Source: a virus
Lineage: Duplodnaviria > Caudoviricetes
Strand: one strand, 5' to 3'
DNA length: 39,532 bases
IMG/VR virus record: IMGVR_UViG_3300037046_000003
Coordinates: 1-39,532 of that record
The notes under the pieces are model-generated. The model had not been told where the DNA came from, searched no databases, and saw only the letters and a list, made by a program, of their open reading frames with translations. The translations under genes were made by a program, and so were the position numbers. This document shows, one piece after another, positions 1,671-23,390 of this stretch. How positions within the stretch are numbered: the stretch's first letter is position 1; every line of letters starts with the position of its first letter.

Positions 1671-1691
1671 ATGCTACAGGTGGGTTTTACT
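1671..1691 (-). promoter_or_regulatory. Putative phage RNAP promoter (late)
   Basis: Minus strand AGTAAAACCCACCTGTAGCAT(AGG), a variant of a motif found in six co-oriented gene-boundary copies. Confidence 0.75.
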
Positions 1692-2594: not shown

Positions 2595-3403
2595 AGCTTC
2601 ACTTTCTTTTCTTTGAAGTCGTAATCAGAGGCACGGCAGATGCGGGCCACTCGGGCTTGCACCAATGCGTCCTCTTCGGTTAATCCGGCCTTCTCGAAGA
2701 TGGCCACTACAGATTCCCAGCGGGATGCACTTGGGACTTTCTCCCAGCGAATCTCCGTGGTCTTCTTGCGGGGGTAGATGTACTCGTAGGCCTGGTACTT
2801 CAGCCCGGCATCCACCGTTTCCTTGTAGGCCTTCAGACCGTAGCCCGGAGCGCCCTTGTAGTGGTCCGTGTCGTCACCTGTCACAGCCTGCAACAGGTGC
2901 CACCAATCGGCTTCCTCTTCGGAGACCTTCCAGGGCTTGGGGTCCTTTGCGGGGTTCCACAGCCAGCCGGGGATGGTCTTCATGTCCTTGTCTTCGGACA
3001 CGATGACCTTGCGACCAGGGACCAGGGTGGGGTGTGTGGAGAGAATCCCCATCACATCGTCCGCCTCCAGCGTGGGCCTTGCGTAGGTCCGGTAGGCACT
3101 TGCCAGGTACTCCTTGATGGGAGTCAGCAGGAGCGGCCTGTTGTCATAGTCACGGTTGCCCTTGTAGGAGGGCAGGACTCCGAGGCGGAAGTTCTCTTCG
3201 TGAGGGCAGGAGAGGCACACGATGATTTCGTCTGCCTTCCAGCGGGCCTTCCACTCAGCCAGTTGGGCATCTACCTGGAGGGCTACAGTGCCCATGCTAG
3301 ATACCGTCTTGGTGATGACCCCGTTGCCCCAGTCGTGCTTCTCCTCATTGGTGGATGCGTGCTTGAAGGCTACGATGTCCGCATCAATCAGGAGGGTAAT
3401 CAC
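2579..3403 (-). CDS. 5'-3' exonuclease (T7 gp6-like)
   Basis: LLIDADI, YKGNR, LEADDVMGI, SEDKDM and GDDTDHYKGAPG motifs. Start moved to GTG 3403, which overlaps the holin stop. Confidence 0.93.
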   Translation of the reverse strand: MITLLIDADIVAFKHASTNEEKHDWGNGVITKTVSSMGTVALQVDAQLAEWKARWKADEIIVCLSCPHEENFRLGVLPSYKGNRDYDNRPLLLTPIKEYLASAYRTYARPTLEADDVMGILSTHPTLVPGRKVIVSEDKDMKTIPGWLWNPAKDPKPWKVSEEEADWWHLLQAVTGDDTDHYKGAPGYGLKAYKETVDAGLKYQAYEYIYPRKKTTEIRWEKVPSASRWESVVAIFEKAGLTEEDALVQARVARICRASDYDFKEKKVKLWTPQ

Positions 3404-3768
3404 TTCTTCAGGATGCCTGCCACGGTCCCGGCAACCTTCTCCACACTGCGGCCAACGACATAGCCGCCCAGGCCCAACTGAACGATGTCCCACAGCTTCA
3501 GGTACTCTTCAGGGCTCAGGTCTGGGGCGGACATGCCGAACCAGCGGGCCACAATCAGGGTAGTGAAGGTGAGCATGGTGATGGGGCGCCAGGAGGCGGT
3601 GAGCCAGTTGGTGCTCTGTGCTTCGGCCTTCACGATGTCAGCTTGTGCGGCGAACACTGTGAGGATGGTTGTTACGCGGGCCTTCTCGGCTTCGCCTGCA
3701 TCCGGCCAGATTTTGTCCAGGATGGTCTTGCCAGCTTCGAGGGCTGCTGTGAGGGGATCAAGCGCCAT
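3400..3768 (-). CDS. Holin-like protein, GTA 3TM holin family
   Basis: LDKIWPD...KAEAQSTNWLTASWRP...LGLGGYVVGRSVEK signature with hydrophobic segments. Confidence 0.8.
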   Translation of the reverse strand: MALDPLTAALEAGKTILDKIWPDAGEAEKARVTTILTVFAAQADIVKAEAQSTNWLTASWRPITMLTFTTLIVARWFGMSAPDLSPEEYLKLWDIVQLGLGGYVVGRSVEKVAGTVAGILKK

Positions 3769-3773
3769 AGTGC

Positions 3774-4064
3774 TTATTCTTTCGAGAGAAACGTGAGGCC
3801 AGATGCCGTGGTCCTCCAGAGGTGTCCGTAGTGGAGACTCCTGGGGGCGGTCCTGGTGGTGATGTAGCCGAGGCTTGAGGCAGCGGCCACAAAGAAGGCG
3901 TTGCTTCGTGCGAAGTCGGACTGAAGGGAGAAGGGGCAGGTGTATGCCTGCTGGACAACCTCCAGGAGCCTCTTATCGAGCCCTTCGGAGTATTCCTTCG
4001 CGCCGGCCGTCTTGAACATAACGGCGGGGCGCACCTTGCAGCGGGTGGGAGTGGTCAGTGACAT
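3774..4064 (-). CDS. T7 gp5.7-like protein (host RNAP inhibitor family); start uncertain
   Basis: CPFSLQSDFARSNAFFVAAASSLGYIT...WRTTASGLTFL parallels T7 gp5.7, and the position after the polymerase is syntenic. Confidence 0.75.
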   Translation of the reverse strand: MSLTTPTRCKVRPAVMFKTAGAKEYSEGLDKRLLEVVQQAYTCPFSLQSDFARSNAFFVAAASSLGYITTRTAPRSLHYGHLWRTTASGLTFLSKE

Positions 4065-6094
4065 TCGGCCCAGTTCTTTCCTATCTTGTATTCCCCTGTG
4101 ATGGGTACGCGGAAGTTGAAGAAGGTGCCGGTATCGGCGATGGCTTGAACCGCCATAGCGCCTACCTGCTCGGCCACTGAGGGATCACACGACAATTGGA
4201 TTTCGTCATGGACCCAAAGCATCTGATCCACAAGATGGTCTATCCCAGCAGCCACAAGGGCTTCATGGAACAGGACCTGCCACTGCTTGGAGAGGATGGC
4301 GCCACAGGATTGCAGGAGGGAGTTCAGGGCGGCGTGACGATGGCGGACCTTGATGAGTCGCCCATCGAGCCCCTTGAGATACCCCTGTTTGGCCTTCAGC
4401 GAGACGGCATCAATGAGTTCCTTCAGGGCTGGTAGGCCGGCAAGGAAGCGGCGCTTCAGAGCCTCCCCAGCTTCACGGCCTTGGCCAATGATCTTGCCGA
4501 GGCGTTCTCCGCCAGCCCCATAGAGGAAGGCGTAGATGAAGGTCTTGGCGTTGTCCCGTGTGGGCAGCTTGACAGCCTTCTGATTGACCGTATGGACATC
4601 ACCCTTGGTGACCACAAGGCCGTAGGCCCCATCGTCGTAGCGGGCCATGTAGTGGGCCAGGCAGCGCAGCTCAATGCCGGACATATCTATGCCGACCTGG
4701 ACGCGCCCTGGAGGTGGTCCGAAGAGGGACCTACACTCGAATCCCCAGCCACCCGGCAGGCCCATGAGGATGGACCCGTCATCAGCCTTCACTACCTTAG
4801 GCACTTGGCCCATGTTGGGGTTGCTGTGAGTGGCACGGCCTGTGACAGCCCCATTGGTAACCATGGAGCCGAATATCCAGCCGTCCCTTTCGTGGCGTAG
4901 CCAGGACTCCTTACCCTCGGACAGTTGCCCAAGGCGCTTCCCGATGGTGAGGTAGGTGGAGAACACCTGGGCCTCTGGGTAGGGGAGTTCCTTCAGGATG
5001 GTCTCGTCAATCTTCGCAGCCCCTTCCGGGGTAAGCTCAGTGGGCTCCCAGCCGTACAGCTCTTTGAGCCAGATGGCGATATGCACACGGGAGCCAGGAT
5101 TGAACTCAACCAGCTTGACCTTCGTGTAGGCAGCCCCTTCGGTGAAGTCGTAGGAGTTGTAGCAATAGCCAGTGATGACCTTTGCCTTGCCCCTGCCCGT
5201 ACTGATGGGGCGGTTTAGGTTAAGCCCAAGGGCCTCTTCCTGGTCCCGCCTGGACATCGGGGGGACTGTCTCCATGCACTCACCGAACCAGCGAGGTTTG
5301 AAGATGAGCTTCAGCTTCTCCTCAATCTTCAGCTTCTCTTTGACCATCTCTGCATAGAGCTGGCCTGCGGCTGTGCGATTGAAGCAGACGCCATAGCGTT
5401 CCTGCTGGGCGATGATTGAAGCCACCGCATGTTCCAGGATTACGGACTTGACGGAGAAGGGATCAGGGGCCTTCTTCAGGGCCTTGAACTGGGAGCCTTC
5501 CATCTTGGAGAGGCACTTGTCCCAGAGGGCCGAGGTGGCAACAATGTCCTGAACGCAGTAGTCATCCATGGACTGATTCCACTTGGCCCATTTGGTGGCC
5601 TTGCGGAGTGCCTCATCGGCAATGGCAGGGTCCCCTGCGTACTCATCCTTGAAGACCCCGAGGCGGTAACCCCAGGCTTCCAGCGAGTGACGCTTGAAGA
5701 GGTTCTTCGGCAGCGTCCCCTTCTTCATCAGCCCGATGTCTAGGTCGATGATGTCAGCGTAGAGCAAGCGAACCAGAACCAGCGTATCCCACACCATGGC
5801 CATGTTTGGCTTGAAGGCGGGGATTAGCTTCTTGAGGGCAGGGATGTCGAACTTGATTACGTTGTGGCCGGCGATGAATGTGCCGTTGTGCGTTGCTGCA
5901 TGCAGCCGCTCGACTCCCTGAAGGATTGAACCTGTCCGGAAGACTGGGTGCGGCTGGTCGTTGTAGCGGGAGATTTCCCCAGTGGCTGTATCCTTGATGA
6001 CCAGGCAGTGATGCAAGGTCAGCTCAGGGATCAGCCCGTTCGTCTCGATGTCGAATAGGAGCACCGGGACCTCGGAAGGCCCCGGATAGATCAC
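4055..6094 (-). CDS. DNA polymerase family A (T7 gp5-like)
   Basis: ExoI FDIETNG, GHNVIKFD, motif A DMSGIELR, motif B RDNAKTFIYAFLYG and motif C VHDE. Confidence 0.97.
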   Translation of the reverse strand: MIYPGPSEVPVLLFDIETNGLIPELTLHHCLVIKDTATGEISRYNDQPHPVFRTGSILQGVERLHAATHNGTFIAGHNVIKFDIPALKKLIPAFKPNMAMVWDTLVLVRLLYADIIDLDIGLMKKGTLPKNLFKRHSLEAWGYRLGVFKDEYAGDPAIADEALRKATKWAKWNQSMDDYCVQDIVATSALWDKCLSKMEGSQFKALKKAPDPFSVKSVILEHAVASIIAQQERYGVCFNRTAAGQLYAEMVKEKLKIEEKLKLIFKPRWFGECMETVPPMSRRDQEEALGLNLNRPISTGRGKAKVITGYCYNSYDFTEGAAYTKVKLVEFNPGSRVHIAIWLKELYGWEPTELTPEGAAKIDETILKELPYPEAQVFSTYLTIGKRLGQLSEGKESWLRHERDGWIFGSMVTNGAVTGRATHSNPNMGQVPKVVKADDGSILMGLPGGWGFECRSLFGPPPGRVQVGIDMSGIELRCLAHYMARYDDGAYGLVVTKGDVHTVNQKAVKLPTRDNAKTFIYAFLYGAGGERLGKIIGQGREAGEALKRRFLAGLPALKELIDAVSLKAKQGYLKGLDGRLIKVRHRHAALNSLLQSCGAILSKQWQVLFHEALVAAGIDHLVDQMLWVHDEIQLSCDPSVAEQVGAMAVQAIADTGTFFNFRVPITGEYKIGKNWAECH

Positions 6095-9397: not shown

Positions 9398-9418
9398 ATG
9401 CGATAGCTGGGTTTTACT
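9398..9418 (-). promoter_or_regulatory. Putative phage RNAP promoter
   Basis: AGTAAAACCCAGCTATCGCAT, identical to 11974-11994. Confidence 0.8.
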
Positions 9419-11973: not shown

Positions 11974-11994
11974 ATGCGATAGCTGGGTTTTACT
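11974..11994 (-). promoter_or_regulatory. Putative phage RNAP promoter
   Basis: AGTAAAACCCAGCTATCGCAT(AGA) immediately after the ligase stop. Confidence 0.8.
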
Positions 11995-13122: not shown

Positions 13123-15567
13123 TCAGGCGAAGAAGTAGTCTGATTCCATGACGGCTTCGAGGTCCAGGGTGCCCATCGGTGGGAGGGGCGGGAGGGTGGC
13201 AGCAAGTTCGTCTGGCAGTTGCTCGGCCAGTTGATCCCGGAAGTCTTTCAGGATGTCTCCCCGGTATTGATCCATGAAGGCCCGGCGGAGGTGGTAGGAC
13301 AGCTCTTCGGCTTCCGCTGCATGAGCCCCATAGGAGTCATGAATCATGCAGAAGTCTTTGAGCCCAGCGTCCAGACAGTAATTAACGGTACGCATCATGT
13401 GAGCCGCATCCAGGGAGTGGATGAAGTTCGGAGAGATGCCATTCTTCTGGGCAACCTTGTTGATCTTGTGCCCTGTGATGTTGAGGACCATACGGTATCT
13501 GCGGCCCGCTACATTGAAGTCGAGGTCCTTACCCTCGGCCACCCTATAGGCTTGCTGCACCAAGAGCCCTGAAGGGGTCACCCAGCGCACCGGAAGGCCA
13601 TCAGACGCGGCCACCTTGGCAGCATCCATGAGCCATTGCATGGCGACACGGGCAGCAACCACGACTTGACCAATGGCGGTGTGGTTCTTCTCGGCGATGT
13701 ACGCTGCGTCTTCCATCTCGGTTTCCCGTGTAGGGCCACTGAGGTCGCCATCAAGGCGCATGGAGGAGAACTCCTCGCGGAGCTGGTTGCGCATCCCGTA
13801 CTTGGACACGCCGTAGGGGACCGTCATGGTGTTGCGCTTGGTCCATTTACGGGTCAGCTTGCCTACCCAGCGTTCAGCTACCGGGCAATCGCCTGCTGCT
13901 GCGTCCAGGTCGATGGACTTCTGGGCAACCTCAGCCACAGCCCGATAGACATCCGAGGGGGTGTCCGAGGGAACCAGATTGACAGCCTTGCCGCCCACTT
14001 CATCGCGGAGCATTGCGGAGAAGTTCTGGAGGCCATTACAGGTGCCATCCCAGGAGACCGGGAGGTGGGAGAGGAATGAGCTGCCCTGCATGGTGTAGCC
14101 GGCCCACTCAAAGCAGAAGGCCAGGAACATATAGGGGCTGTCAGCCTCGGCCCAGAAGAGGCTTCCGTCCGTTGGGTTGAAGGCACACTCCAGAATCTGG
14201 TCACGATGATCCAGCACCCATTGGACACGATCACCGAAGGGGACCTTATCGACACCGAAGCAGTTGGCGCCATGGACAGCTAGCCAGGTTGCCCCGTGTT
14301 CGCCCAGCGGTTTGCCGGCAGCGAAGGTGAGGAGGGCCTTGGCAAGGTCATCGCCCTGGGGGTTCAGCATGGAGGACACCGGGTAGGCCCGGCCACGCCA
14401 GTCGAGGGCATGGGGGAAGTGGAACTGCTCGTATTCGCCCATGACTTCAGCGATGTGCAGCTTGGTTTCCACCCCGAGGCGCTTGCTAACGAGGCGGATG
14501 TTCTCCTCGTAGGTCTGGGCAGCAGCCTTCTTCCATGCCTTGTGCTTCTCGGGCTCCGTCTCTGGGTCATGGAACTTCGGCGGCAGGGGCAGGGGCTCAC
14601 GGGTAGGCAGGCCACCAACACGGCCACCGCCATCCCATATCTCACGGGCAACTCGCAGGACGCCTGTATTGACAGACCATGCGGTGTCCTGGAGGGCATT
14701 GATGGAGCGATAGACATCCGGCATGTCCCAGTGGCGCAGCTCTTCAAGGTAGTTCTTGTTGGCTGTCTTGATGAGTGGGAAGCGCAGCTCCTTGGTGAGG
14801 TAGCCGCCACCATAGGGGCCTGTCCAGGGGATCGGAGGGGACACCATGGGCATGAAGGTGGGCTGCATCAGGGAGCAGCGGGCGTGTGCCAGCTCCAGCC
14901 ATTCCATGGTCTTGGCGGATGCGGTGATGTAGTTGGGGGTGTCGTTGTGCCCACGGGTCATCTTCAAAACCTCGATAAGCCCCGTGGATTCGACCATCAG
15001 GTGGATTAAGGTTGTGCCCATACGGGCCTTTTCGGTGACTCCCCACTTGATGGTAGCGACGCCTGCATATTCCTGCTGGCGCTTCATGACGATATGGCGG
15101 TAGCCCTCGTCGTTGCTGTGCTGAATCTTCCGGCAGAGCTGCTTATAGAGCAGTGGGGCTTCTGCCTCCAAGGCGTCATGGTTCAGGCAGTCTTCAAGGG
15201 CATTGGCCACCTGAATGGCAGCCGTGGATAGGAGAATCTTGTCGGTGATGGAGTGGATGACACGGCGGGCCACGATGAAGGCGGCACGCTCGGGGGAGAA
15301 CTGGGCCAGGAACTTGGCGATGGAGGTGGAGCGGCCAGCCTTGCCGTCTAGGGCCTCTTCGATCATGGTACGGATGCACTCAGCGAGGGGCAGGACGGCA
15401 GCCTTGATGAGGCGCTGGCCGGGTTGCAGGGTGTCTTCCCCGGCACTCAGGGAGGCCAGATACTTCTCAACACCGAGGGCCAGGCATTCACCCTCAAGGG
15501 CAACCTGCTGGAGCTTCAGGAATTCTTGCTTAGTAGGGACGGGTTGATAGTTGTCCATTTGATGCAC
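13123..15567 (-). CDS. Single-subunit DNA-directed RNA polymerase (T7 gp1-like)
   Basis: LDWRGRAYP, DGTCNGLQ, RKWTKRNTMTVPYG, PNFIHSLDA, IHDSY and C-terminal YFFA. Confidence 0.98.
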   Translation of the reverse strand: MHQMDNYQPVPTKQEFLKLQQVALEGECLALGVEKYLASLSAGEDTLQPGQRLIKAAVLPLAECIRTMIEEALDGKAGRSTSIAKFLAQFSPERAAFIVARRVIHSITDKILLSTAAIQVANALEDCLNHDALEAEAPLLYKQLCRKIQHSNDEGYRHIVMKRQQEYAGVATIKWGVTEKARMGTTLIHLMVESTGLIEVLKMTRGHNDTPNYITASAKTMEWLELAHARCSLMQPTFMPMVSPPIPWTGPYGGGYLTKELRFPLIKTANKNYLEELRHWDMPDVYRSINALQDTAWSVNTGVLRVAREIWDGGGRVGGLPTREPLPLPPKFHDPETEPEKHKAWKKAAAQTYEENIRLVSKRLGVETKLHIAEVMGEYEQFHFPHALDWRGRAYPVSSMLNPQGDDLAKALLTFAAGKPLGEHGATWLAVHGANCFGVDKVPFGDRVQWVLDHRDQILECAFNPTDGSLFWAEADSPYMFLAFCFEWAGYTMQGSSFLSHLPVSWDGTCNGLQNFSAMLRDEVGGKAVNLVPSDTPSDVYRAVAEVAQKSIDLDAAAGDCPVAERWVGKLTRKWTKRNTMTVPYGVSKYGMRNQLREEFSSMRLDGDLSGPTRETEMEDAAYIAEKNHTAIGQVVVAARVAMQWLMDAAKVAASDGLPVRWVTPSGLLVQQAYRVAEGKDLDFNVAGRRYRMVLNITGHKINKVAQKNGISPNFIHSLDAAHMMRTVNYCLDAGLKDFCMIHDSYGAHAAEAEELSYHLRRAFMDQYRGDILKDFRDQLAEQLPDELAATLPPLPPMGTLDLEAVMESDYFFA

Positions 15568-15632: not shown

Positions 15633-15654
15633 ATGCGATAGCTGGGTTTTTACT
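15633..15654 (-). promoter_or_regulatory. Putative phage RNAP promoter upstream of the RNAP gene
   Basis: AGTAAAAACCCAGCTATCGCAT (one extra A), overlapping the bro stop. Confidence 0.75.
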
Positions 15655-16357
15655 TGATGAGCTTCATTTTCTTAGCTGCGGCAGTCAGGAGAGAGACTGG
15701 GTACATGGCCTGCCCATCGAACTCCTTGGTACGGGTGATGCGGCCAGCGGCATCGTTCATGCCACGTACAGTCTTCCCGAGGGTGGTCTTCTGGCCGTGG
15801 GTGAGTACCAAGCGGAGGGACTTATTGAAGTCGAAGACACTGGCGTACTCCAAGGCATCGGCCACCTGTGCCTTCACCTCCTTCAGCTCCACTGCCTGCT
15901 GGGCCTGCACCTTGGCTTGCTCCTGCATGGCTGTGTAGATGGCCTGCATGGCTCCCATCTGGGCACCAATCAGGTCCATGTTAGACATCGTAGGGTTCTC
16001 CACAAGGGACGGCTGTCCGGTCACGAAGGAGCCAGTCTTGCGGATGGAGGGGAGGACTTCCTTGGTTACCCAGTCTTGGAAGGGGCGGGCCTGCGGTGTC
16101 TGGGAGCGCATCGCCAACTTGTAAAGCCCGGACTCGGACACCAGCATCACCTCGCGGCCTGCACCAAGCCCCAACTCCACGGGGTGGCCCTTGAGTGACT
16201 CAGAGTCATCCAAGCAGTTGTATCGGCGGGAGTGGCCCTCAGCAGTACCGAAGAGCACGCGAAAGATGTCCGCGCCGACGAACCACGGGTTGCCCTCAAT
16301 GGTGACTACGCGGATGGTGGAGGTATTGAAATTGAAGGACGTAACTTGGGTGTTCAT
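15650..16357 (-). CDS. BRO-N domain protein (prophage antirepressor-like)
   Basis: IRVVTIEGNPWFVGADI, VSESGLYKLAMRS and FQDWVTKEVLPSIRKTG motifs. Confidence 0.9.
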   Translation of the reverse strand: MNTQVTSFNFNTSTIRVVTIEGNPWFVGADIFRVLFGTAEGHSRRYNCLDDSESLKGHPVELGLGAGREVMLVSESGLYKLAMRSQTPQARPFQDWVTKEVLPSIRKTGSFVTGQPSLVENPTMSNMDLIGAQMGAMQAIYTAMQEQAKVQAQQAVELKEVKAQVADALEYASVFDFNKSLRLVLTHGQKTTLGKTVRGMNDAAGRITRTKEFDGQAMYPVSLLTAAAKKMKLIK

Positions 16358-16406
16358 GGTCTATCTCCGATTCGTGGAAGCAATGCAGAAGTGTATGATA
16401 CAGGGG

Positions 16407-16442
16407 AAATGAAAGACACCCACAGATTATCTATGGGTGTCT
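16407..16442 (-). terminator. Terminator-like hairpin downstream of attP and upstream of bro
   Basis: AGACACCCATAGA-TAA-TCTGTGGGTGTCT followed by TTCATTT. Confidence 0.7.
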
Positions 16443-16444
16443 GA

Positions 16445-16522
16445 AGGAGTCTCTTTAGGAGTCTCTTATTACTACTCTTTACTAAGTAATCCTTAGAGTG
16501 TCTTTACTAAGGAATCTTTAGG
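16445..16522. repeat. AT-rich short-repeat tract (candidate replication origin)
   Basis: AGGAGTCTCTT x2 and TCTTTACTAAG x2, directly downstream of a promoter motif. Confidence 0.55.
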
Positions 16523-16527
16523 GGCCT

Positions 16528-16548
16528 ATGGGATAGCTGGGTTTTACT
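16528..16548 (-). promoter_or_regulatory. Putative phage RNAP promoter
   Basis: AGTAAAACCCAGCTATCCCAT(AGG), abutting the integrase stop. Confidence 0.78.
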
Positions 16549-17904
16549 CTATTTTTGGGCACATCCTTGGGCACACGGTACTTCTAGGTTAGTATCCACT
16601 TCGTCTGTGGTCTTTGTGTGCTCTGGCTCCCCGACCTGGGCTCGAACCAGGGACCTACGGATTAACAGTCCCATATCTACAGGGTTGTCTATAGGGGACA
16701 CACGCCGGGGACCCAGTATTGACGGCCTTCTCGACTTCCCTGCAAGGTCTGTGCCATGGGTGCTGTCAGAGGCCACTTTGGGCACAAGTTTGGGCACACC
16801 GAAGACACGCTGCGGATGACCTTCTGCCTGCCTGCTGGTTGCCTCTGAGTGGCGAGTGTCAAGGGTCCGTGCGAGGCCCTTCAGGTCGCTGCCAAACAGG
16901 GTGACGTACTTCATGGTTGTCGTGATGTTCGCGTGACCCATCCACTTCTGGATTCGGAAAGCATCCTCCCCGGCTGCCGCTAGGCGTGAAGCACAGGTGT
17001 GGCGGAGGGCGTGAAGGACGAACTCTGGGTCCTTCTTTGTGTCGATGCCGAGGGACACCCTCATAGCGGCCCAGCGATCCTCTGCATAGTCCTTGGAGAG
17101 CATCCCGAAGGGGGTAGGCAGGGCGCTGCGCTTGCGGAGCAGGGCGGCCACTCTACGTGTCATTGGCACTTGTCGCGGGAGGTCGGCCTTCGTCTCCCAT
17201 GCGGCGACCATCTCATTTTCCCAGTCGATGTCTCTGGGCTCCATGCGGATGGCCTCCGAGAGACGGAACCCGGTATCCACAAGGAACACCGACAGGGCTG
17301 CCATATCGGCATCGCGGGGAACCGTCCTGTCAGTGTGGGCGAACCACTCGATGGCAGCCTTCTCCTCGGCGTAGGACAGGATGCGGATGCGGCCATTGCG
17401 AATCTTCTGGCGGGGCATCTTGAAGGGCTTCACTGCACCGCTGGTCCATGCCTCCGCAAGGGTAAGCAGGACGCTGACAAGGGACAGGCGCTGGTTGATC
17501 GTGCTGGCACTCAGCTCCTCGTTGTCCCTCAGCTTCTCCACGTAGGAGAGCATCACACCCCGGTCGAGACTGGACAGGTCCGTATGGTCCTCGAAGTGGC
17601 GGACCACATGGGCGTAGTTGTCGGTGATGGTCTTCTGGGCAGTGCTGGCACGCCAAGGCTCATACTCGCGCATGGCCCTCTTGAAGGCGTCCTTGAAGGC
17701 CATCCCACGGGCAGCCCCTAGACGCACGCTGGAGGCCGTTACAGGGCCTCTGCTGGGCATGCGGAGGGCTTCCTCCATGGCTACCTGCTTGGCCATCTCA
17801 AGGCGCCCAGCTTCGGCCCTGTCAGTAGTGCCGAGGGAGACGCGGACACGCTCCCCGTTGGACAGCCTGAAGTCGGACTGCCAAACACCCTTACGTTGCT
17901 TCAT
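16549..17904 (-). CDS. int: Tyrosine integrase
   Basis: N-terminal arm-binding-like segment, DTGFRLSE (R), ETK (K), HALRHT (HxxR), MGH and TTMKY (Y). The tail of about 90 aa reads through attP. Confidence 0.95.
   Translation of the reverse strand: MKQRKGVWQSDFRLSNGERVRVSLGTTDRAEAGRLEMAKQVAMEEALRMPSRGPVTASSVRLGAARGMAFKDAFKRAMREYEPWRASTAQKTITDNYAHVVRHFEDHTDLSSLDRGVMLSYVEKLRDNEELSASTINQRLSLVSVLLTLAEAWTSGAVKPFKMPRQKIRNGRIRILSYAEEKAAIEWFAHTDRTVPRDADMAALSVFLVDTGFRLSEAIRMEPRDIDWENEMVAAWETKADLPRQVPMTRRVAALLRKRSALPTPFGMLSKDYAEDRWAAMRVSLGIDTKKDPEFVLHALRHTCASRLAAAGEDAFRIQKWMGHANITTTMKYVTLFGSDLKGLARTLDTRHSEATSRQAEGHPQRVFGVPKLVPKVASDSTHGTDLAGKSRRPSILGPRRVSPIDNPVDMGLLIRRSLVRAQVGEPEHTKTTDEVDTNLEVPCAQGCAQK
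16555..16575. repeat. Integrase arm-type site pair
   Basis: TTGGGCACA at 16555 and 16567 (12-bp period). Confidence 0.75.
16624..16671 (-). mobile_element. attP core = 3' half of tRNA-Asn(GTT) including CCA
   Basis: Minus strand GGACTGTTAATCCGTAGGTCCCTGGTTCGAGCCCAGGTCGGGGAGCCA has the anticodon loop CTGTTAA, T-arm GGTTCGAGCCC and CCA. The 5' half is absent. Confidence 0.92.
16778..16798. repeat. Integrase arm-type site pair
   Basis: TTGGGCACA at 16778 and 16790 (12-bp period). Confidence 0.75.
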
Positions 17905-17905
17905 G

Positions 17906-18241
17906 TCATCCTCCTTGGATGGCCTCGATTTCAGCCTTAAGGGCCTGTCCTCGGGGTGTCAGTTTGACCAGCTTGCGGCGGCGATAGAACGGGTCTTCAA
18001 AGGCATCAAGCAGCCCGTACCCCGGTTCCTTCGGGTTCAGTCCGGGACCGAGGATGACCACGTTGCGGGAGACAGATGACTGCTCCACCCCGGCCAGCTT
18101 CGGCAGGTCGGCCATCGGTATTTCTCCGCGCTCTAGGATGGTGAGGAGAATGGATACCTGCTGAAGCGGTATCTTAGGGTTGTCGGTGTAGCGGAGGATG
18201 GTTGTCAATACCTTCCCCGTGACTGTGAGAGCTTTCATCAT
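17906..18241 (-). CDS. MarR-like winged-helix regulator (candidate repressor)
   Basis: LAGVEQSSVSRNVVIL...EDPFYRRRKLVKLTPRG, directly upstream of int. Confidence 0.85.
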   Translation of the reverse strand: MMKALTVTGKVLTTILRYTDNPKIPLQQVSILLTILERGEIPMADLPKLAGVEQSSVSRNVVILGPGLNPKEPGYGLLDAFEDPFYRRRKLVKLTPRGQALKAEIEAIQGG

Positions 18242-18395
18242 TTACCCCTATCTTCGTTATGAGGATGAGCGTGCGTCCTATCAGGACTTCCCACTCATTA
18301 GCGTGTTCCTGCTTCTCTATGCGGAACCGTGGTCGCGGTCCTTCGCGGGTATAGAAGTCAGTCCCTGCCGTTACATTGAATCCAAAAATTAACAC
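18174..18395 (-). CDS. Hypothetical protein overlapping the MarR-like gene start
   Basis: 73-aa ORF, relatively low GC, weak SD. Confidence 0.4.
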   Translation of the reverse strand: MLIFGFNVTAGTDFYTREGPRPRFRIEKQEHANEWEVLIGRTLILITKIGVNDESSHSHGEGIDNHPPLHRQP

Positions 18396-18420
18396 GTTAT
18401 CTATGACCTTTGTGATACCG

Positions 18421-18457
18421 CACCCCGCGTGCTGCTATCAAGTCACGATGCGGGGTG
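18421..18457. other. Hairpin in the AT-rich intergenic region upstream of the marR-int unit
   Basis: CACCCCGC...GCGGGGTG inverted repeat. Confidence 0.55.
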
Positions 18458-18586
18458 GATATGATACATGAGTGGAACTGATACACAACCAGTACAGAGG
18501 GCATTCTACCTATTAGGTAATATGATGCTTGCTTATAGTTTCATCAGTCCGTGAGGTGCTAACTAGCCTCTTAGAGCGAATCCGTG

Positions 18587-18751
18587 CTAGTAGGAGGCGT
18601 CCAGAAGAGGCCCTACAAGAATCAGGAGGATCGGGACGAGGACCACAGAGAGGGCGGCTAGGACCTCCTCGGGCTTCCTTGCTAGGGGCGTTAGGGCGGA
18701 CCCTCTGTAGAGCCTTGGAGGGGCCTTCCTGTGCGTCTGGGGGCGGTTCAT
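18587..18751 (-). CDS. Small early protein with a C-terminal TM segment (54 aa)
   Basis: GAGGAG SD then ATG 18751, containing VLAALSVVLVPILLILVGPLL. Confidence 0.6.
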   Translation of the reverse strand: MNRPQTHRKAPPRLYRGSALTPLARKPEEVLAALSVVLVPILLILVGPLLDASY

Positions 18752-18761
18752 TATCGGCTCC

Positions 18762-18941
18762 TCAGTAGATGTATTCAAGGGAACCGTTGGGCATCTCCAG
18801 AGCGGCATCAGCGGACTCGCCTGCCCTGTACCGGTCCTTCAGGTACTTCATGGCAGCGTCGAAGGACAGGCCGGTTTCCACGATGTCCTCAGATTCAAGG
18901 CCGGGGTTCTCAACGATTGAGTAGGTGCGCGGGAGGTTCAT
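18762..18941 (-). CDS. Small early protein (59 aa), absent from the ORF track
   Basis: AAGGA SD, reading MNLPRTYSIVENPG...GSLEYIY*. Confidence 0.7.
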   Translation of the reverse strand: MNLPRTYSIVENPGLESEDIVETGLSFDAAMKYLKDRYRAGESADAALEMPNGSLEYIY

Positions 18942-18944
18942 GAT

Positions 18945-19103
18945 TCAGTTCCTTACGAGGGAGCAGGCGTTTCCGCTAGCTGCTGCATGCTTGAGCCACT
19001 GGAGGGCCATCTTGTGGGGAAACGAGGAGCGGCCCAGCCTGTCAGCGAAGTAGCTGAATGAGCCGTCTCCTGCATCAATGCGGATGCTGTATTGGTTGCT
19101 CAT
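18945..19103 (-). CDS. Small early protein (52 aa), absent from the ORF track
   Basis: AAGGAG SD, reading MSNQYSIRIDAGDGSFSYF...LVRN*. Confidence 0.65.
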   Translation of the reverse strand: MSNQYSIRIDAGDGSFSYFADRLGRSSFPHKMALQWLKHAAASGNACSLVRN

Positions 19104-19183
19104 GGGGTGATGCGCTCCTTGATGATGCGGACACCCTCACGGGCTGCGCTCTCGACTGCATCAGCGATGAGGAGAAACTTCAT
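19100..19183 (-). CDS. Micro-ORF (27 aa)
   Basis: GGAGG SD and ATGA coupling at both ends, reading MKFLLIADAVESAAREGVRIIKERITP*. Confidence 0.6.
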   Translation of the reverse strand: MKFLLIADAVESAAREGVRIIKERITP

Positions 19184-19386
19184 AGCTTGCAAGCCTCCCG
19201 CACCAAGGCATCAACGGCGGTGTAGAAGTCCTTCATCTCCTCCGCAGTCCTTTGGGGCATCTGGCAGACCTTGGTCAGGTCGTGTAGCAGGGTAGATGCC
19301 TGCTTCAGTGCAACCTCCTCGGGCAGCCCGAGGATGCCGCTATTGGCTACCCTTTCGAGGTGCCATAGGGTGTCGTTCAGGTTCAT
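19180..19386 (-). CDS. Small early protein
   Basis: GGAGG SD then ATG 19386, coupled to its neighbours. Confidence 0.65.
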   Translation of the reverse strand: MNLNDTLWHLERVANSGILGLPEEVALKQASTLLHDLTKVCQMPQRTAEEMKDFYTAVDALVREACKL

Positions 19387-19526
19387 TGGCACACCTCCCT
19401 GACGAACCAGGGTTGAAACTCATGGGCGGGATAATCGCCCCAGGTCAGGAAGCCCATTCGATGTCCTCCTCGGGGATGTAAAGGGGGGGTCAGGCGACCA
19501 CCCACGATGATAAAATCAGTAGCCAT
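19383..19526 (-). CDS. Small early ORF (47 aa)
   Basis: AAGGAG SD, reading MATDFIIVGGRLTPP...GEVCQ*. Confidence 0.5.
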   Translation of the reverse strand: MATDFIIVGGRLTPPLHPRGGHRMGFLTWGDYPAHEFQPWFVREVCQ

Positions 19527-19797
19527 GGCTGGCTCCTTTCCTAGGGCTGTATTTGGAGAGCTTGAGGATTCCCTTACGGGTGCGGCGGAGGATCATCATT
19601 TGGGGCTCCTTTCGAGGTGACTTGACGTATCCAGAAGAGGCCCTGTGACATCCAGGAGGGCCACCCTCCTTGAGCTGGACATACTCGCCAGCCTTCAGGG
19701 CCTTGATAGGGCTCTGCTGGGCAGACTGAGCGGGCCAGCAGATAGGGCAGTTGAAGCCCTTACCGTGTGGGCATTTCGGGCACTGTTCGCGGGCCAT
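19516..19797 (-). CDS. Basic early protein with an N-terminal Cys4 zinc-ribbon-like motif
   Basis: AAGGAGG SD, CPKC...CPIC. Confidence 0.6.
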   Translation of the reverse strand: MAREQCPKCPHGKGFNCPICWPAQSAQQSPIKALKAGEYVQLKEGGPPGCHRASSGYVKSPRKEPQMMILRRTRKGILKLSKYSPRKGASHGY

Positions 19798-19833
19798 GTC
19801 GGGCCTCCTTTAGGTGTGACTGTGGATTAACTG

Positions 19834-19903
19834 AAGGGCTCCGTTAGAGCGAAACCCTTGGATTAATGCAGCAGTGGATAGGGTGGGCCGAGTCAAAGCC
19901 CTT
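19834..19903 (-). other. Extended stem-loop after ardA (RNase III-site-like)
   Basis: AAGGGCT/AGCCCTT outer stem and ACCCT/AGGGT inner stem. Confidence 0.45.
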
Positions 19904-20393
19904 AGTTGCTGAAGTAGTAGCCGTTTTCCTCTGAGAAGTCATAGGCCAAGTCCCTGCCGAATGCCTCAAAATCGAAGTACCGCCGAAGGTTCTCGGGGAC
20001 ATCCGAAAGCATCCCGCAGGATTCCGCGTAGTCCTCTGCCAGTTCAGTATCAGAGCTGTATTTGCCGTAATACTTGTTGTCACAGTCCTCAGCATCCCAC
20101 TCCCCAAAAAGGGAGATGTAAGCAATGGCCTTCTCCATGTCGTCACAGTCCATCAGGGACCAGACAGCCTCCTCAATGGAGCATTCCGACATCATGGAAG
20201 AGGGCACACCCTCGTAGTCCTGGAACATCAATTCCGGGTCTTCCTCATCCTTGTGCAGCTCCCGACATGCAGTAATGAAATCAGCCTTGCCTGCGTAGTC
20301 CGCCAGATCAAGCCACGCACCTTCGATGCTGCCCTCGGTGTACTTCGCATAGGTGCCGACATAGACACGGAATTCGGTTGTGTTGGTGGTCAT
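19902..20393 (-). CDS. ardA: ArdA antirestriction protein (DNA mimic)
   Basis: VYVGTYAKY...GAWLDL, DPELMFQDYE and LRRYFDFEAFGRDL motifs; very acidic. Confidence 0.92.
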   Translation of the reverse strand: MTTNTTEFRVYVGTYAKYTEGSIEGAWLDLADYAGKADFITACRELHKDEEDPELMFQDYEGVPSSMMSECSIEEAVWSLMDCDDMEKAIAYISLFGEWDAEDCDNKYYGKYSSDTELAEDYAESCGMLSDVPENLRRYFDFEAFGRDLAYDFSEENGYYFSN

Positions 20394-21575: not shown

Positions 21576-21596
21576 ATGGGATAGGTGGGTTTTACC
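21576..21596 (-). promoter_or_regulatory. Putative phage RNAP promoter at the right end (phiOR-like)
   Basis: GGTAAAACCCACCTATCCCAT(AGG) just after terL. Confidence 0.72.
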
Positions 21597-21659: not shown

Positions 21660-23390
21660 CTATGACATCCAGTTGGGCACAGAAGCACTACTTCCACCGA
21701 GGGCATGCTCCATGAACTTGGCTAATTCCATGTCCAGGAGGGCTGCCCTATGGTCATCCAGAGACTTCTGAACGTCTGCATCCATCTGCTCTGCCCAATA
21801 GGCTACGGCTATCGCCAGTGCATCTAGGCGGTCATCGTGGGCCAGGGCTTGTCTCTCTCGGGTGATCCGGGTGAGCTGGTAGAAGAGCTGATACTTGTGT
21901 GCATGGTCTGAGGGGTGGTCGTTGTAGTTCTCGAAGTCCTTCTTCACCAGGGCCTCATCAATGACCAGGCGGTGCTGGTTCATCACGGGCTCCAGCGTGT
22001 CAATGATGCGGGCCTCCTTCTGGGTGCTGTGGCGGACCTCCTCGGTGGTCACGGGGTAGATGCGGACCAGGAACGGAGTCAGCAGTTTGAGGAACATGCC
22101 GTCACCGAAGTTGGACTCCACCAGGACACACTTGGCCTTGTAGCGTTTAGCTAACTTGGCCAGGGCCTCCAGGTTGTCATCAGCGTAGCCGCCCTTCATG
22201 CCCCCTGCGTCGAGACAGTAGAGGACACCATTGAGCATCGCCACGATGGCGTAGGAGAGTTCATCGGTGCCACGGCCTGCCGGGTCAATGGCCATGACGC
22301 AGCCTTGATACTCGGCGAACTCCTTGGCGATGAACATGGGCCTGTGCAGACGGTCCCCGGACATGCCCACGTTGGGGAGGTCGGAGATAATCTGGTCTGG
22401 GCCTGATCCCCAGGCGACTCCCACGGGGGCCAGCTCGGTGCTCAATGACATCACCACAAGGTCAGACATCTTCAGCGGATAGCGGTCGGTGTCGGAGCCT
22501 GCGGTATCAAGCATGAACTGCATGGCGAAGCCTGAGCGACCGTAGGAGAGTTCCCGCTTGAGGAGTTCCCTATCGGTGAATCGCTTGGGGTCCGTGGGGA
22601 GTCCCCGGCCGTCAGCTCGGGTGGCCAGTGAGGGGTCATCGGCCAGGGCCTTCAGGATCGAAGGGGCCAGGCGGGAGCCATAGCGGGTGATCTGCTCGGC
22701 CGTGGGGTAGCGGGCAGGCCACACACGAATCTCATACCCTCGGGAGGGCAGGATGTTGTAGAGGCTCATCTCGGTCTGGGGCGTGCCCAGGTAGATGACC
22801 TCGCCGCCTGGCACAAGAACGGCATCGAACTCCTTGACCTGCTCGGCCAGCTTGTCCCGCATGCCCTGTGTCAGGGAGTTCTTCGGCACCTCGATGTCAT
22901 CCGCAACAATGATGGTGGCCCGGCTGCCGGCAAGCTGCCCAGAGATGCCCACAGATTTCACTGAGGGTGCCTGGTGGGCGCTGCTGGGGCCTACGTCAAA
23001 GGCGATGTTGGAGTCTCGCTGCCCAGGGCGTGCCTTGAGGTGCTGAAGTAGCGGCATCTCATCAATGAGCCTCTTCAGGAACACGGAGAAGGCATCAGCC
23101 CGCTCCTTCGAGGCGGACACAACCATGACGCGCTCTTCAGGGTTCAGGAGGAGTCGCCAGAGAACGTAGGCGGCTGTCTCCCAGGACTTACCAACACCCC
23201 GGAAGGCTTCAATGATGCGCCGTTCAGGGCCATGCTGGAGGTACAGCGCGATGTCGTACTGGACTACAGTGGGGTCGGGAAGGTTCAGGTGCTTCCATAC
23301 GAGGAACAGGAAGTTTCTGAAGTCAGCCCGTACCGGGTCATAGGCGTTAGCAACAGCCCGTGCGCCCGGCGTGGGTGCGTTAGGTGGCAG
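21660..23390 (-). CDS. terL: Terminase large subunit (T7 gp19-like), probable CUG start
   Basis: The frame is open upstream of ATG 23126 through DFRNFL and AFRGVGKS (Walker A). Also IVADDIE, LGTPQ, DPAGRG and HDDRLDALA. Confidence 0.93.
   Translation of the reverse strand: MPPNAPTPGARAVANAYDPVRADFRNFLFLVWKHLNLPDPTVVQYDIALYLQHGPERRIIEAFRGVGKSWETAAYVLWRLLLNPEERVMVVSASKERADAFSVFLKRLIDEMPLLQHLKARPGQRDSNIAFDVGPSSAHQAPSVKSVGISGQLAGSRATIIVADDIEVPKNSLTQGMRDKLAEQVKEFDAVLVPGGEVIYLGTPQTEMSLYNILPSRGYEIRVWPARYPTAEQITRYGSRLAPSILKALADDPSLATRADGRGLPTDPKRFTDRELLKRELSYGRSGFAMQFMLDTAGSDTDRYPLKMSDLVVMSLSTELAPVGVAWGSGPDQIISDLPNVGMSGDRLHRPMFIAKEFAEYQGCVMAIDPAGRGTDELSYAIVAMLNGVLYCLDAGGMKGGYADDNLEALAKLAKRYKAKCVLVESNFGDGMFLKLLTPFLVRIYPVTTEEVRHSTQKEARIIDTLEPVMNQHRLVIDEALVKKDFENYNDHPSDHAHKYQLFYQLTRITRERQALAHDDRLDALAIAVAYWAEQMDADVQKSLDDHRAALLDMELAKFMEHALGGSSASVPNWMS

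Follow-up and report, generated by a model that had tools for sequence, protein, structure and literature searches.

An attachment site inside the integrase gene of a T7-like phage and a possible non-stop brake on the prophage integrase

The DNA analysed here is the 39,532-nt virus record IMGVR_UViG_3300037046_000003 (Duplodnaviria; Caudoviricetes), called the window as a whole, and our subject is its tyrosine integrase gene (int), which runs through the phage attachment site (attP) and ends beyond it. Because int spans attP, integration into a tRNA-Asn gene removes the int tail together with the stop codon. We suggest, with a probability of about 0.4, that the loss of this 24-codon tail and stop would lower the level of integrase (Int) in the lysogen, where the int message would often lack a stop codon and its product would then be tagged by transfer-messenger RNA (tmRNA). 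A sequence-only reading of the same DNA had placed attP inside int and had proposed that free phage and prophage encode different Int C-termini; the 48-bp 3' half of tRNA-Asn does lie within the open reading frame (ORF), and the different C-termini are found in integrated relatives. The elements on which the argument depends are listed below.

16549..17904, minus strand: tyrosine integrase of 451 residues (ORF, Pfam, alignment and predicted structure)
16906..16908, minus strand: codon of the catalytic Tyr333, which is invariant in 31 aligned sequences
16778..16798, minus strand: Int-proximal pair of arm-type repeats, TGTGCCCAA twice with a 12-nt period, read as VPKLVPK
16624..16671, minus strand: att core, the 3' 48 nt of tRNA-Asn(GTT), coding for Int residues 412-427 (GLLIRRSLVRAQVGEP)
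16662..16668, minus strand: anticodon loop CTGTTAA, the probable crossover region
16552..16623, minus strand: phage-only tail of 24 codons (Int residues 428-451), which moves to attL on integration
16588..16602, minus strand: conserved DNA motif GAAGTGGATACTAAC, candidate site for an accessory protein
16555..16575, minus strand: distal pair of arm-type repeats, read as CAQGCAQ
16549..16551, minus strand: int stop codon, adjoining the last arm repeat (TAG in the window; two relatives have TGA in its place)
16533..16545, minus strand: repeated motif AAAACCCAGCTAT, starting 3 nt past the int stop, candidate phage promoter
16414..16442, minus strand: intrinsic-terminator-like hairpin (13 bp and a U-rich tail) downstream of the int stop

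Pfam Phage_integrase (PF00589) was matched at residues 188-335 of Int (E 2.5e-20), and the catalytic set R214, K239, H298, R301, H324 and Y333 was observed to be invariant or nearly so in our alignments. The Foldseek matches are tyrosine recombinases, among them Tn1549 Int (E 5e-12) and lambda Int (E 7e-9). The AlphaFold model, for which 31 sequences were in the alignment, is a confident three-domain integrase up to about residue 360, followed by about 90 residues of coil with a predicted local distance difference test score (pLDDT) of 39-58. Its N-terminal domain (residues 2-48, three strands and a helix, pLDDT 85-96) resembles arm-binding domains and is predicted to bind the arm repeats. With this domain, the arm repeats flanking the core and the R-K-H-x-x-R-H-Y set, the enzyme appears to be of the lambda (heterobivalent) type. 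The sequence-only reading had int continuing about 110 codons past the catalytic Tyr; the read-through stands and the figure does not, as we counted 118 codons between Tyr333 and the stop. Private mutation, frameshift and assembly error were considered as causes of the read-through and ruled out: relatives share it, which excludes a frameshift or assembly error, and contigs of the public run X1, possibly the source of this DNA, match 16288-16653 and 16642-20000 without another letter or gap.

Positions 16624-16671 match, at 48/48, the 3' end of the complete tRNA-Asn(GTT) found in the metagenome locus L091, in agreement with the earlier assignment of the core to a bacterial tRNA-Asn. The Rfam tRNA model matches 16627-16698 with an anticodon arm (GUU) and a T arm at E 0.002, below its gathering score, and ARAGORN found no whole tRNA in the window; Rfam matches to RsaA and mir-1910, also below gathering scores, were set aside as chance. 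Through the window's variant of the core only the int frame is open, the other two meeting a TAA in the anticodon loop and a TAG four codons on. Identity between phage and host starts 1-3 nt before the anticodon loop in L083 and L091 and ends with the loop in the relative G003, and crossover is likely to take place in this loop, about 80 codons after Tyr333 and with all the catalytic residues on one side. The 9-mer TGTGCCCAA was found on the minus strand at 16790, 16778, 16567 and 16555 with a 12-nt period, and once more at 21673; these five copies compare with 0.44 expected per window, and none of 100 shuffles reached five. We infer that they are integrase arm sites.

The exchange of the Int C-terminus was observed in integrated relatives. 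The homologue search was taken to the best 120 of 160 matches, and 30 of them were aligned with the query. Among the matches listed, P0001-P0006, P0009, P0010 and P0031 read the core in the int frame of the window; P0002, P0003 and P0005 continue with a phage-type tail of 24, 24 and 22 residues, and the other read-through homologues have unrelated tails of 3 to 257 residues. The sequence-only reading had allowed that close relatives might stop shortly after the catalytic Tyr, and most do not, since 10 of the 12 closest rows around the window read through the core. As an example, record G006 (L037 and L083) has the core at both ends, where int at one end reads into the core and the tRNA junction at the other leads into 24 codons that are closed, in the same frame, by a stop. 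In L091 a whole tRNA-Asn, the 24-codon arm, a regulator-sized ORF, int and a second core lie between bacterial genes, and its positions 2783-5266 form a 2.4-kb integrated remnant without replication or virion genes. The expected replacement of the last 24 or so codons is thereby seen as that of residues 428-451, with a 24-codon tail at attL in both relatives. Furthermore, P0009 and P0258 share 405 identical residues and diverge exactly after the CCA codon, P0006 and P0259 diverge one residue past it, and the provirus G002 (L172 and L085), integrated at a tRNA with a CAT anticodon, has 14 residues at attR and 32 at attL. The attL of G001 lies outside its record. In these relatives the prophage Int, as read from the sequences, is an intact catalytic domain with a new C-terminus.

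Several further observations were made on the relatives. The aminotransferase gene flanking L091 has its best matches in Ralstonia and Caballeronia (73-75%, in a plasmid collection), which is a weak hint of a betaproteobacterial host. L091 also has a strong sigma-70-like promoter (11/12) at 5067-5095 inside the int tail, pointing at the core, and no counterpart was found in the window. Protein P0010 looks like a spurious fusion of 675 residues in the protein collection, its Int frame continuing for 257 residues beyond the core into an apparent host ORF. Relative G003 (L084 5130-5309 and L175 1-200; polymerase 73% identical) has the 5' part of tRNA-Asn between its arms, along with promoter-like DNA and about 170 nt of apparent host coding sequence, presumably pnp-like as judged by eye; the anticodon loop marks the end of its junction, and its int is closed by a stop ahead of the arms. 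The tails of the distant integrases P0166, P0169 and P0230 translate, by eye, the tRNA 5' half or its antisense, and int/att overlap may therefore arise occasionally outside the window clade too. DNA patterns for either arm brought no new clade member in viral contigs. Contigs of public runs break within the core, and loose ends at 16624 and 16671 with tRNA-like neighbours were rejected as evidence of integration.

Read-through is a clade trait, near-fixed close to the window and often gained or lost further out. The open frame was examined in nine loci, which are the window, six of the eight viral matches and two of the 72 metagenome matches (L091 and L093); L084, in which att carries a piece of tRNA from the 5' side and int ends short of the arms, and L090 (26% identity) were left out, L092 repeats L084, and the remaining metagenome matches were placed in the control. 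In eight of these nine clade loci with a same-strand tRNA 3' half, int stays open from Tyr+27 up to the anticodon region, where dinucleotide shuffles give 1.77 open loci (P 6e-6; six of seven lineages, P 3e-4), and the other two frames have 0-5 stops over the same stretch. The window is the ascertained case; seven of eight loci are open without it, and eight of ten if L084 is counted as a miss. The targets of the clade loci are Asn in two frames, Lys, Leu and two CAT tRNAs, that is, six combinations of tRNA and frame. The control comprised 62 distant integrases (17 beside T7-like polymerases and 45 others); a same-strand T-loop motif was found within 400 nt of Tyr in ten, and none of the ten reads into it (8/9 versus 0/10, Fisher P 1e-4). 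In a quick tree of 77 rows, 25 of the 54 rows in the supported clade (SH-like approximate likelihood ratio test, SH-aLRT, 99) read a recognised core versus two of 23 outside; the motif filter skipped rows L089, L170 and P0123, and for protein-only rows, which come without DNA context, a row that does not read through may have another type of att. A count of 13 of 15 open (P 0.006-0.045) was biased, as three of the 13 had been picked by motif from outside the close clade, and it is not used.

The same counts bear on the view that the tail is a tolerated extension, in which the fold ends at about residue 360, the disordered tail behind it is harmless, the stop has drifted downstream and the swap has no function. 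This is rather unlikely in our judgement. It would account for a tail that is disordered by pLDDT and unconserved, for host-side tails that vary from 3 to 257 residues and for the 29 of 54 clade rows that do not read a recognised core beside rows that do; a within-clade neutral simulation also argues only moderately against drift (over 33 codons, a lineage stays free of stops with probability 0.52-0.63). It does not explain why eight of nine loci are open when 1.8 are expected, with stops in the other frames, nor why read-through is absent from the ten distant integrases and most distant homologues stop 16-37 codons after Tyr. The position of the int stop, moreover, is kept through a change between TAG and TGA.

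The tail appears to be conserved as DNA and not as peptide. The linker of 33 residues before the core shows 3-48% identity among 13 sequences, whereas the spacing from arm to core is 38-39 codons in most close relatives, as would be needed for DNA geometry. The tail residues common to three sequences use the same codon in nine of 11 cases, versus 50 of 156 in the folded part. Beyond CCA the phage tails have 1 (L088), about 19 (L089), 22, 24, about 25 (L087) and 32 (G002) residues. Every phage-side sequence read as DNA has its stop past the core; for the window and L037, a terminator-like hairpin follows the stop (z-scores -5.7 and -6.1). What is constant across the clade is a stop codon on the phage side of the crossover. 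The tail peptide itself looks unimportant, and the exchanged piece has the look of a disordered tail carrying a stop codon, and not of a domain or a coded degron. Integration host factor (IHF) was considered as the binder of the GAAGTGGATACTAAC motif in this tail, but the IHF consensus fits poorly by eye, and the motif is left unassigned.

A function of the tail peptide is nevertheless required if, as in the myxophage Mx8, Int is adjusted in its activity or directionality by the phage tail, or by the extension as a whole, and the prophage form acts differently. Integration of Mx8 is described as giving int a new 3' end and altering site specificity (available text of PMC6070905). The 24-residue length and a CxQxCxQ pattern recur in five phage-side sequences, the length and the stop position being the same at attL of the two integrated relatives and in P0002 and P0003; L087 and G002 read the distal arms in the same Cys frame though their core is in another, and prophages with early stops would be covered too. 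We hold this to be unlikely, as the tail is conserved by codon, that is, as DNA sites, and has no predicted structure; furthermore, it is one residue long in L088, it stops before the arms in L089, and the arms seem to be in a different frame in P0017 and P0027.

The sequence-only reading had drawn an analogy with mycobacteriophages, in which integration removes a C-terminal degradation tag, and it does not fit tails that are polar, predicted disordered and conserved as DNA. Tags of the ssrA type end in small hydrophobic residues, whereas the phage tails end in CAQK, CDQN, DCD, KDG, RL, GTK and DNH, with polar C-termini in the five close phage-side tails. A disordered C-terminus would be accessible to a protease, and attP-linked tags have a precedent (as reported in the accessible part of PMC3694055), but a stable prophage Int would destabilise the lysogen, and removal of a coded tag that stabilises Int on integration seems to us highly improbable. 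If Int stability is controlled at all, the prophage form is more likely the unstable one, the reverse of this analogy.

We therefore return to the loss of the stop codon, for which the attR side of the relatives is informative. The first stop of L091, at 5264-5266, comes after a hairpin of 12 bp and its U tract (5224-5257). In L086, placed at an attR end by the position of its polymerase, a hairpin (z-score -5.3) with a weak U tract lies about 75 or more codons before the stop. L083 ends too early for its attR stop to be read, and in two of the three readable attR loci the hairpin comes before the stop. Among 23 read-through tails known as peptides, nine could be encoded by a hairpin and U tract ahead of the stop, and for five of these nine at most 6 of 200 shuffles were as good; of the remaining tails, six have fewer than ten residues and eight are without this signature, the phage-type P0002, P0003 and P0005 included. 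Four of the seven closest prophage-type tails look non-stop (P0001, P0004, P0010 and L091).

When a message ends without a stop codon, tmRNA rescues it and the protein made from it is degraded. In the free phage, a stable Int would be made for integration. In the lysogen, int would be transcribed behind a MarR-like repressor gene, probably on the same message, and this message would often end at the hairpin in the tRNA trailer before any stop is reached. Trans-translation would then lead to degradation of tagged Int while the co-transcribed MarR-like repressor persists, and excision would need strong induction or read-through of the terminator. Where the host trailer has an early stop, a tail-less and untagged Int would be made and the brake would be absent. 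Three reports bear on this scheme, each cited for the part of its text available: in LUZ100 a MarR-like gene and int form one transcript that ends at a terminator behind int (PMC10134795), so that a lysogen making repressor would also make Int; mycobacteriophage prophages stay stable through a low, degradation-controlled level of Int (PMC3694055); and the stop-less arfA message is repressed by trans-translation (PMC10107115). We rank the non-stop brake first because of the co-transcription in LUZ100 and the stability of low-Int lysogens in mycobacteriophages. A stronger form, which we put forward more hesitantly, is a trans-translation switch operated by recombination, where the stop would be kept beyond attP so that tmRNA destroys Int in the lysogen while repressor accumulates. 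Such a switch would replace control of the excisionase type and would have been remade on at least five tRNA targets in different frames.

Several observations weigh against the non-stop brake. A terminator-like hairpin was found in 41 of 67 distinct trailers behind the window's core (which belong to other phages and hosts and in many cases are arms of other elements), and in 25 of these 41 unrelated tRNA-Asn trailers (61%) the U tract is reached in the int frame before any stop; as the rate in the relatives equals this baseline, the data show that the non-stop outcome is common and give no sign of selection for it. The terminator scan did not call the L086 hairpin a terminator, the stop lies inside the likely hairpin stem in L085/P0021, and four of the nine peptide signatures are not individually significant. 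Among the seven closest prophage-type tails, three (P0006, P0009 and P0259) stop within 3-8 codons. Read-through is labile in the wider clade (25/54), where reading rows have non-reading sisters beside them; the stop of P0030 and P0147 lies within the core, and that of P0007 and P0008 (56-60% identical) ahead of it. In-frame indels were dropped as proof of selection, because lengths differ mostly by 12 nt and 12 nt is the arm period, so that frame-keeping indels are not independent evidence. Lastly, the anatomy of attR is known from relatives and not from the window phage itself.

An open frame could also be kept for the sake of the transcript. Translation across att might shield the int transcript of the free phage from Rho or from tRNA-processing nucleases acting at the T arm or CCA, and so set the int mRNA level or the read-through into the Ant and RNA polymerase genes; integration would then change the fate of the mRNA and not that of the protein. 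Retroregulation has a precedent in lambda sib. Such ribosome cover would explain selection of the open frame without peptide conservation, as well as the stops at or just past the core in P0030, P0147 and L088, and read-through past the terminator behind int has been proposed to supply polymerase in LUZ100 (available part of PMC10134795). On the other hand, the att region is untranslated in distant temperate T7-like phages with the same gene order, and in the window a strong hairpin and a likely phage promoter follow the stop anyway. We regard this explanation as quite improbable, below the Mx8-like swap.

The window is a T7-like phage in its circular form. A terminal overlap of 131 nt (130/131 identical) identifies it as the circular, free-phage (attP) form, and all its large genes lie on the minus strand. 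Pfam matches cover a T7-type gene set of RNA polymerase, ligase, SSB, endonuclease I, amidase, primase-helicase and DNA polymerase A, with capsid, nozzle, tail fibre and terminase. The T7-type RNA polymerase, the replication and virion genes and a MarR-int module upstream of the polymerase are those of temperate T7-like Autographiviridae. Transcription runs from ArdA and small early genes through the MarR-like gene, int and Bro-N/Ant to the RNA polymerase.

17906..18241, minus strand: MarR-like regulator (Pfam MarR E 7e-4, below the cut-off; phrog_9665 E 4e-18)
15650..16357, minus strand: Bro-N/Ant antirepressor-like gene between attP and the polymerase (Pfam, PHROG)
13123..15567, minus strand: T7-like RNA polymerase (Pfam; proviral relatives)

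The MarR-like gene stops 1 nt before the start of int and is likely, by analogy, a repressor gene co-transcribed with it; in temperate T7-like phages a repressor role has been proposed for such genes (PMC10134795, available part). The RNA polymerases of proviral relatives are 57-82% identical to that of the window, and integration puts the polymerase at the attL end of the prophage, separated from the early genes. The sequence-only reading had seen no obvious excisionase: Pfam and PHROG likewise gave none among the neighbouring ORFs scanned, and the MarR-like gene adjoining int, or a small unannotated ORF, could be a candidate for the role. The ArdA antirestriction gene is at 19902-20393 among the early genes, as in ProddE.

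Downstream of int, the motif AAAACCCAGCTAT is likely a promoter of the phage RNA polymerase. Motifs of the form AAAACCCA(G/C)CTAT were observed at gene boundaries at 21581-21593, 16533-16545, 15638-15650, 11979-11991 and 9403-9415, all on the minus strand, with a weak sixth match at 1676-1688 (minus); six matches at up to two mismatches compare with 0.43 expected, and relatives carry a similar motif at the same place past int. Two AT-rich 21-nt repeats (TCTTTACTAAG...) at 16476-16521, between the promoter-like motif and the terminator, are candidate operators for the MarR-like protein.

The sequence occurs in public groundwater metagenome runs, the best of which may be its source, and parts of it agree letter for letter with contigs from two further runs. 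Its share in the RNA run X5 is 0.05, which counts as no evidence. In run X1, alternative contigs with other letters have their joints at 15986-16305 inside the Bro-N/Ant gene, which suggests a second allele or strain. One X1 contig (depth 8.6) joins 16523 to 18289, the two sides of the attP-int-MarR module, with 31 letters on its shorter side, the content between the two points not being known; no direct repeat is evident at the 16523 and 18289 ends, and the contig possibly comes from a co-occurring variant that is without the lysogeny module or has a replacement. A genome collection scanned for the integrase gave two distant matches only.

The recognition of temperate T7-like phages is new, and the means by which they maintain and exit lysogeny are an open question. 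Their joint transcription of int and the repressor raises the question of how a lysogen holds its Int level down, to which the layout described here offers a concrete answer. If it is true, this would be a new use of tmRNA, in which a DNA rearrangement decides whether a message has a stop codon, and a terminator before the first stop at attR is a criterion applicable to every family with attP inside int. For annotators, the prophage Int tails of 3-257 residues seen here are a warning, as they are products of integration and not domains. Should the tail be merely tolerated, one more Mx8-like layout of modest interest would remain.

The layout with attP inside int is known from Mx8, and in the open-access literature we found no described T7-like phage with it and no report of an int-spanning attP in such phages or of a non-stop int mRNA made by integration. 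According to the available parts of PMC6070905 and PMC4383910, Mx8 and Mx9 likewise have a tyrosine integrase with attP in coding sequence behind the catalytic domain and a tRNA target, and the new 3' end acquired on integration leaves the enzyme working; island-finding software allows for attP inside int (same sources, same parts). The window int shares the core past the catalytic Tyr and, judging from its relatives, the new C-terminus with an intact catalytic domain. It differs from Mx8 in belonging to a T7-like phage and in exchanging only 24 disordered, DNA-constrained residues. In Mx8, about 112 Int residues are reportedly replaced by about 13. Among the matches listed, 40 of 247 phage records, Mx8 does not appear. 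The window clade differs further in that its attR frame often meets a terminator before a stop and in using several tRNA targets and frames.

Temperate T7-like phages (LUZ100, HTVC019P-type pelagiphages, Pasto, ProddE, S2B, CRP-804, S-SRP02 and YIMV22061) share with the window the order of MarR-like gene, int, att and polymerase, and have tRNA targets and integrases 28-31% identical to that of the window. In contrast, the long tail is found in none of six cultured members, whose integrases have 333-371 residues; Int ends 15-35 residues after Tyr in four of the six, and the other two have 333 and 371 residues. A non-coding attP between int and polymerase is usual for such phages, though not defining, and the attP sites of pelagiphages are all stated to be non-coding in the available part of 10.1101/410191, whereas the core of the window is coding.

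BPs and related mycobacteriophages also have a C-terminus rewritten by integration and reach stability via Int proteolysis (PMC3694055, available part). In those phages, however, attP lies in the repressor gene and a coded tag is removed, whereas in the window attP lies in int with the MarR-like gene 1.2 kb away, unlike in integration-dependent immunity, the sequence shows no tag, and it is tmRNA that would attach one once the phage has integrated. The suicidal integrases of archaeal elements (SSV1, pTN3 and pT26-2) have att within the integrase gene as well (PMC8371274), but are described as losing their catalytic part (PMC8371274 and PMC5861418, both for the parts available), while that of the window stays whole. 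Control through a stop-less message recalls arfA of E. coli (available part of PMC10107115), with the difference that here the non-stop state would be made by DNA recombination and reversed by excision.

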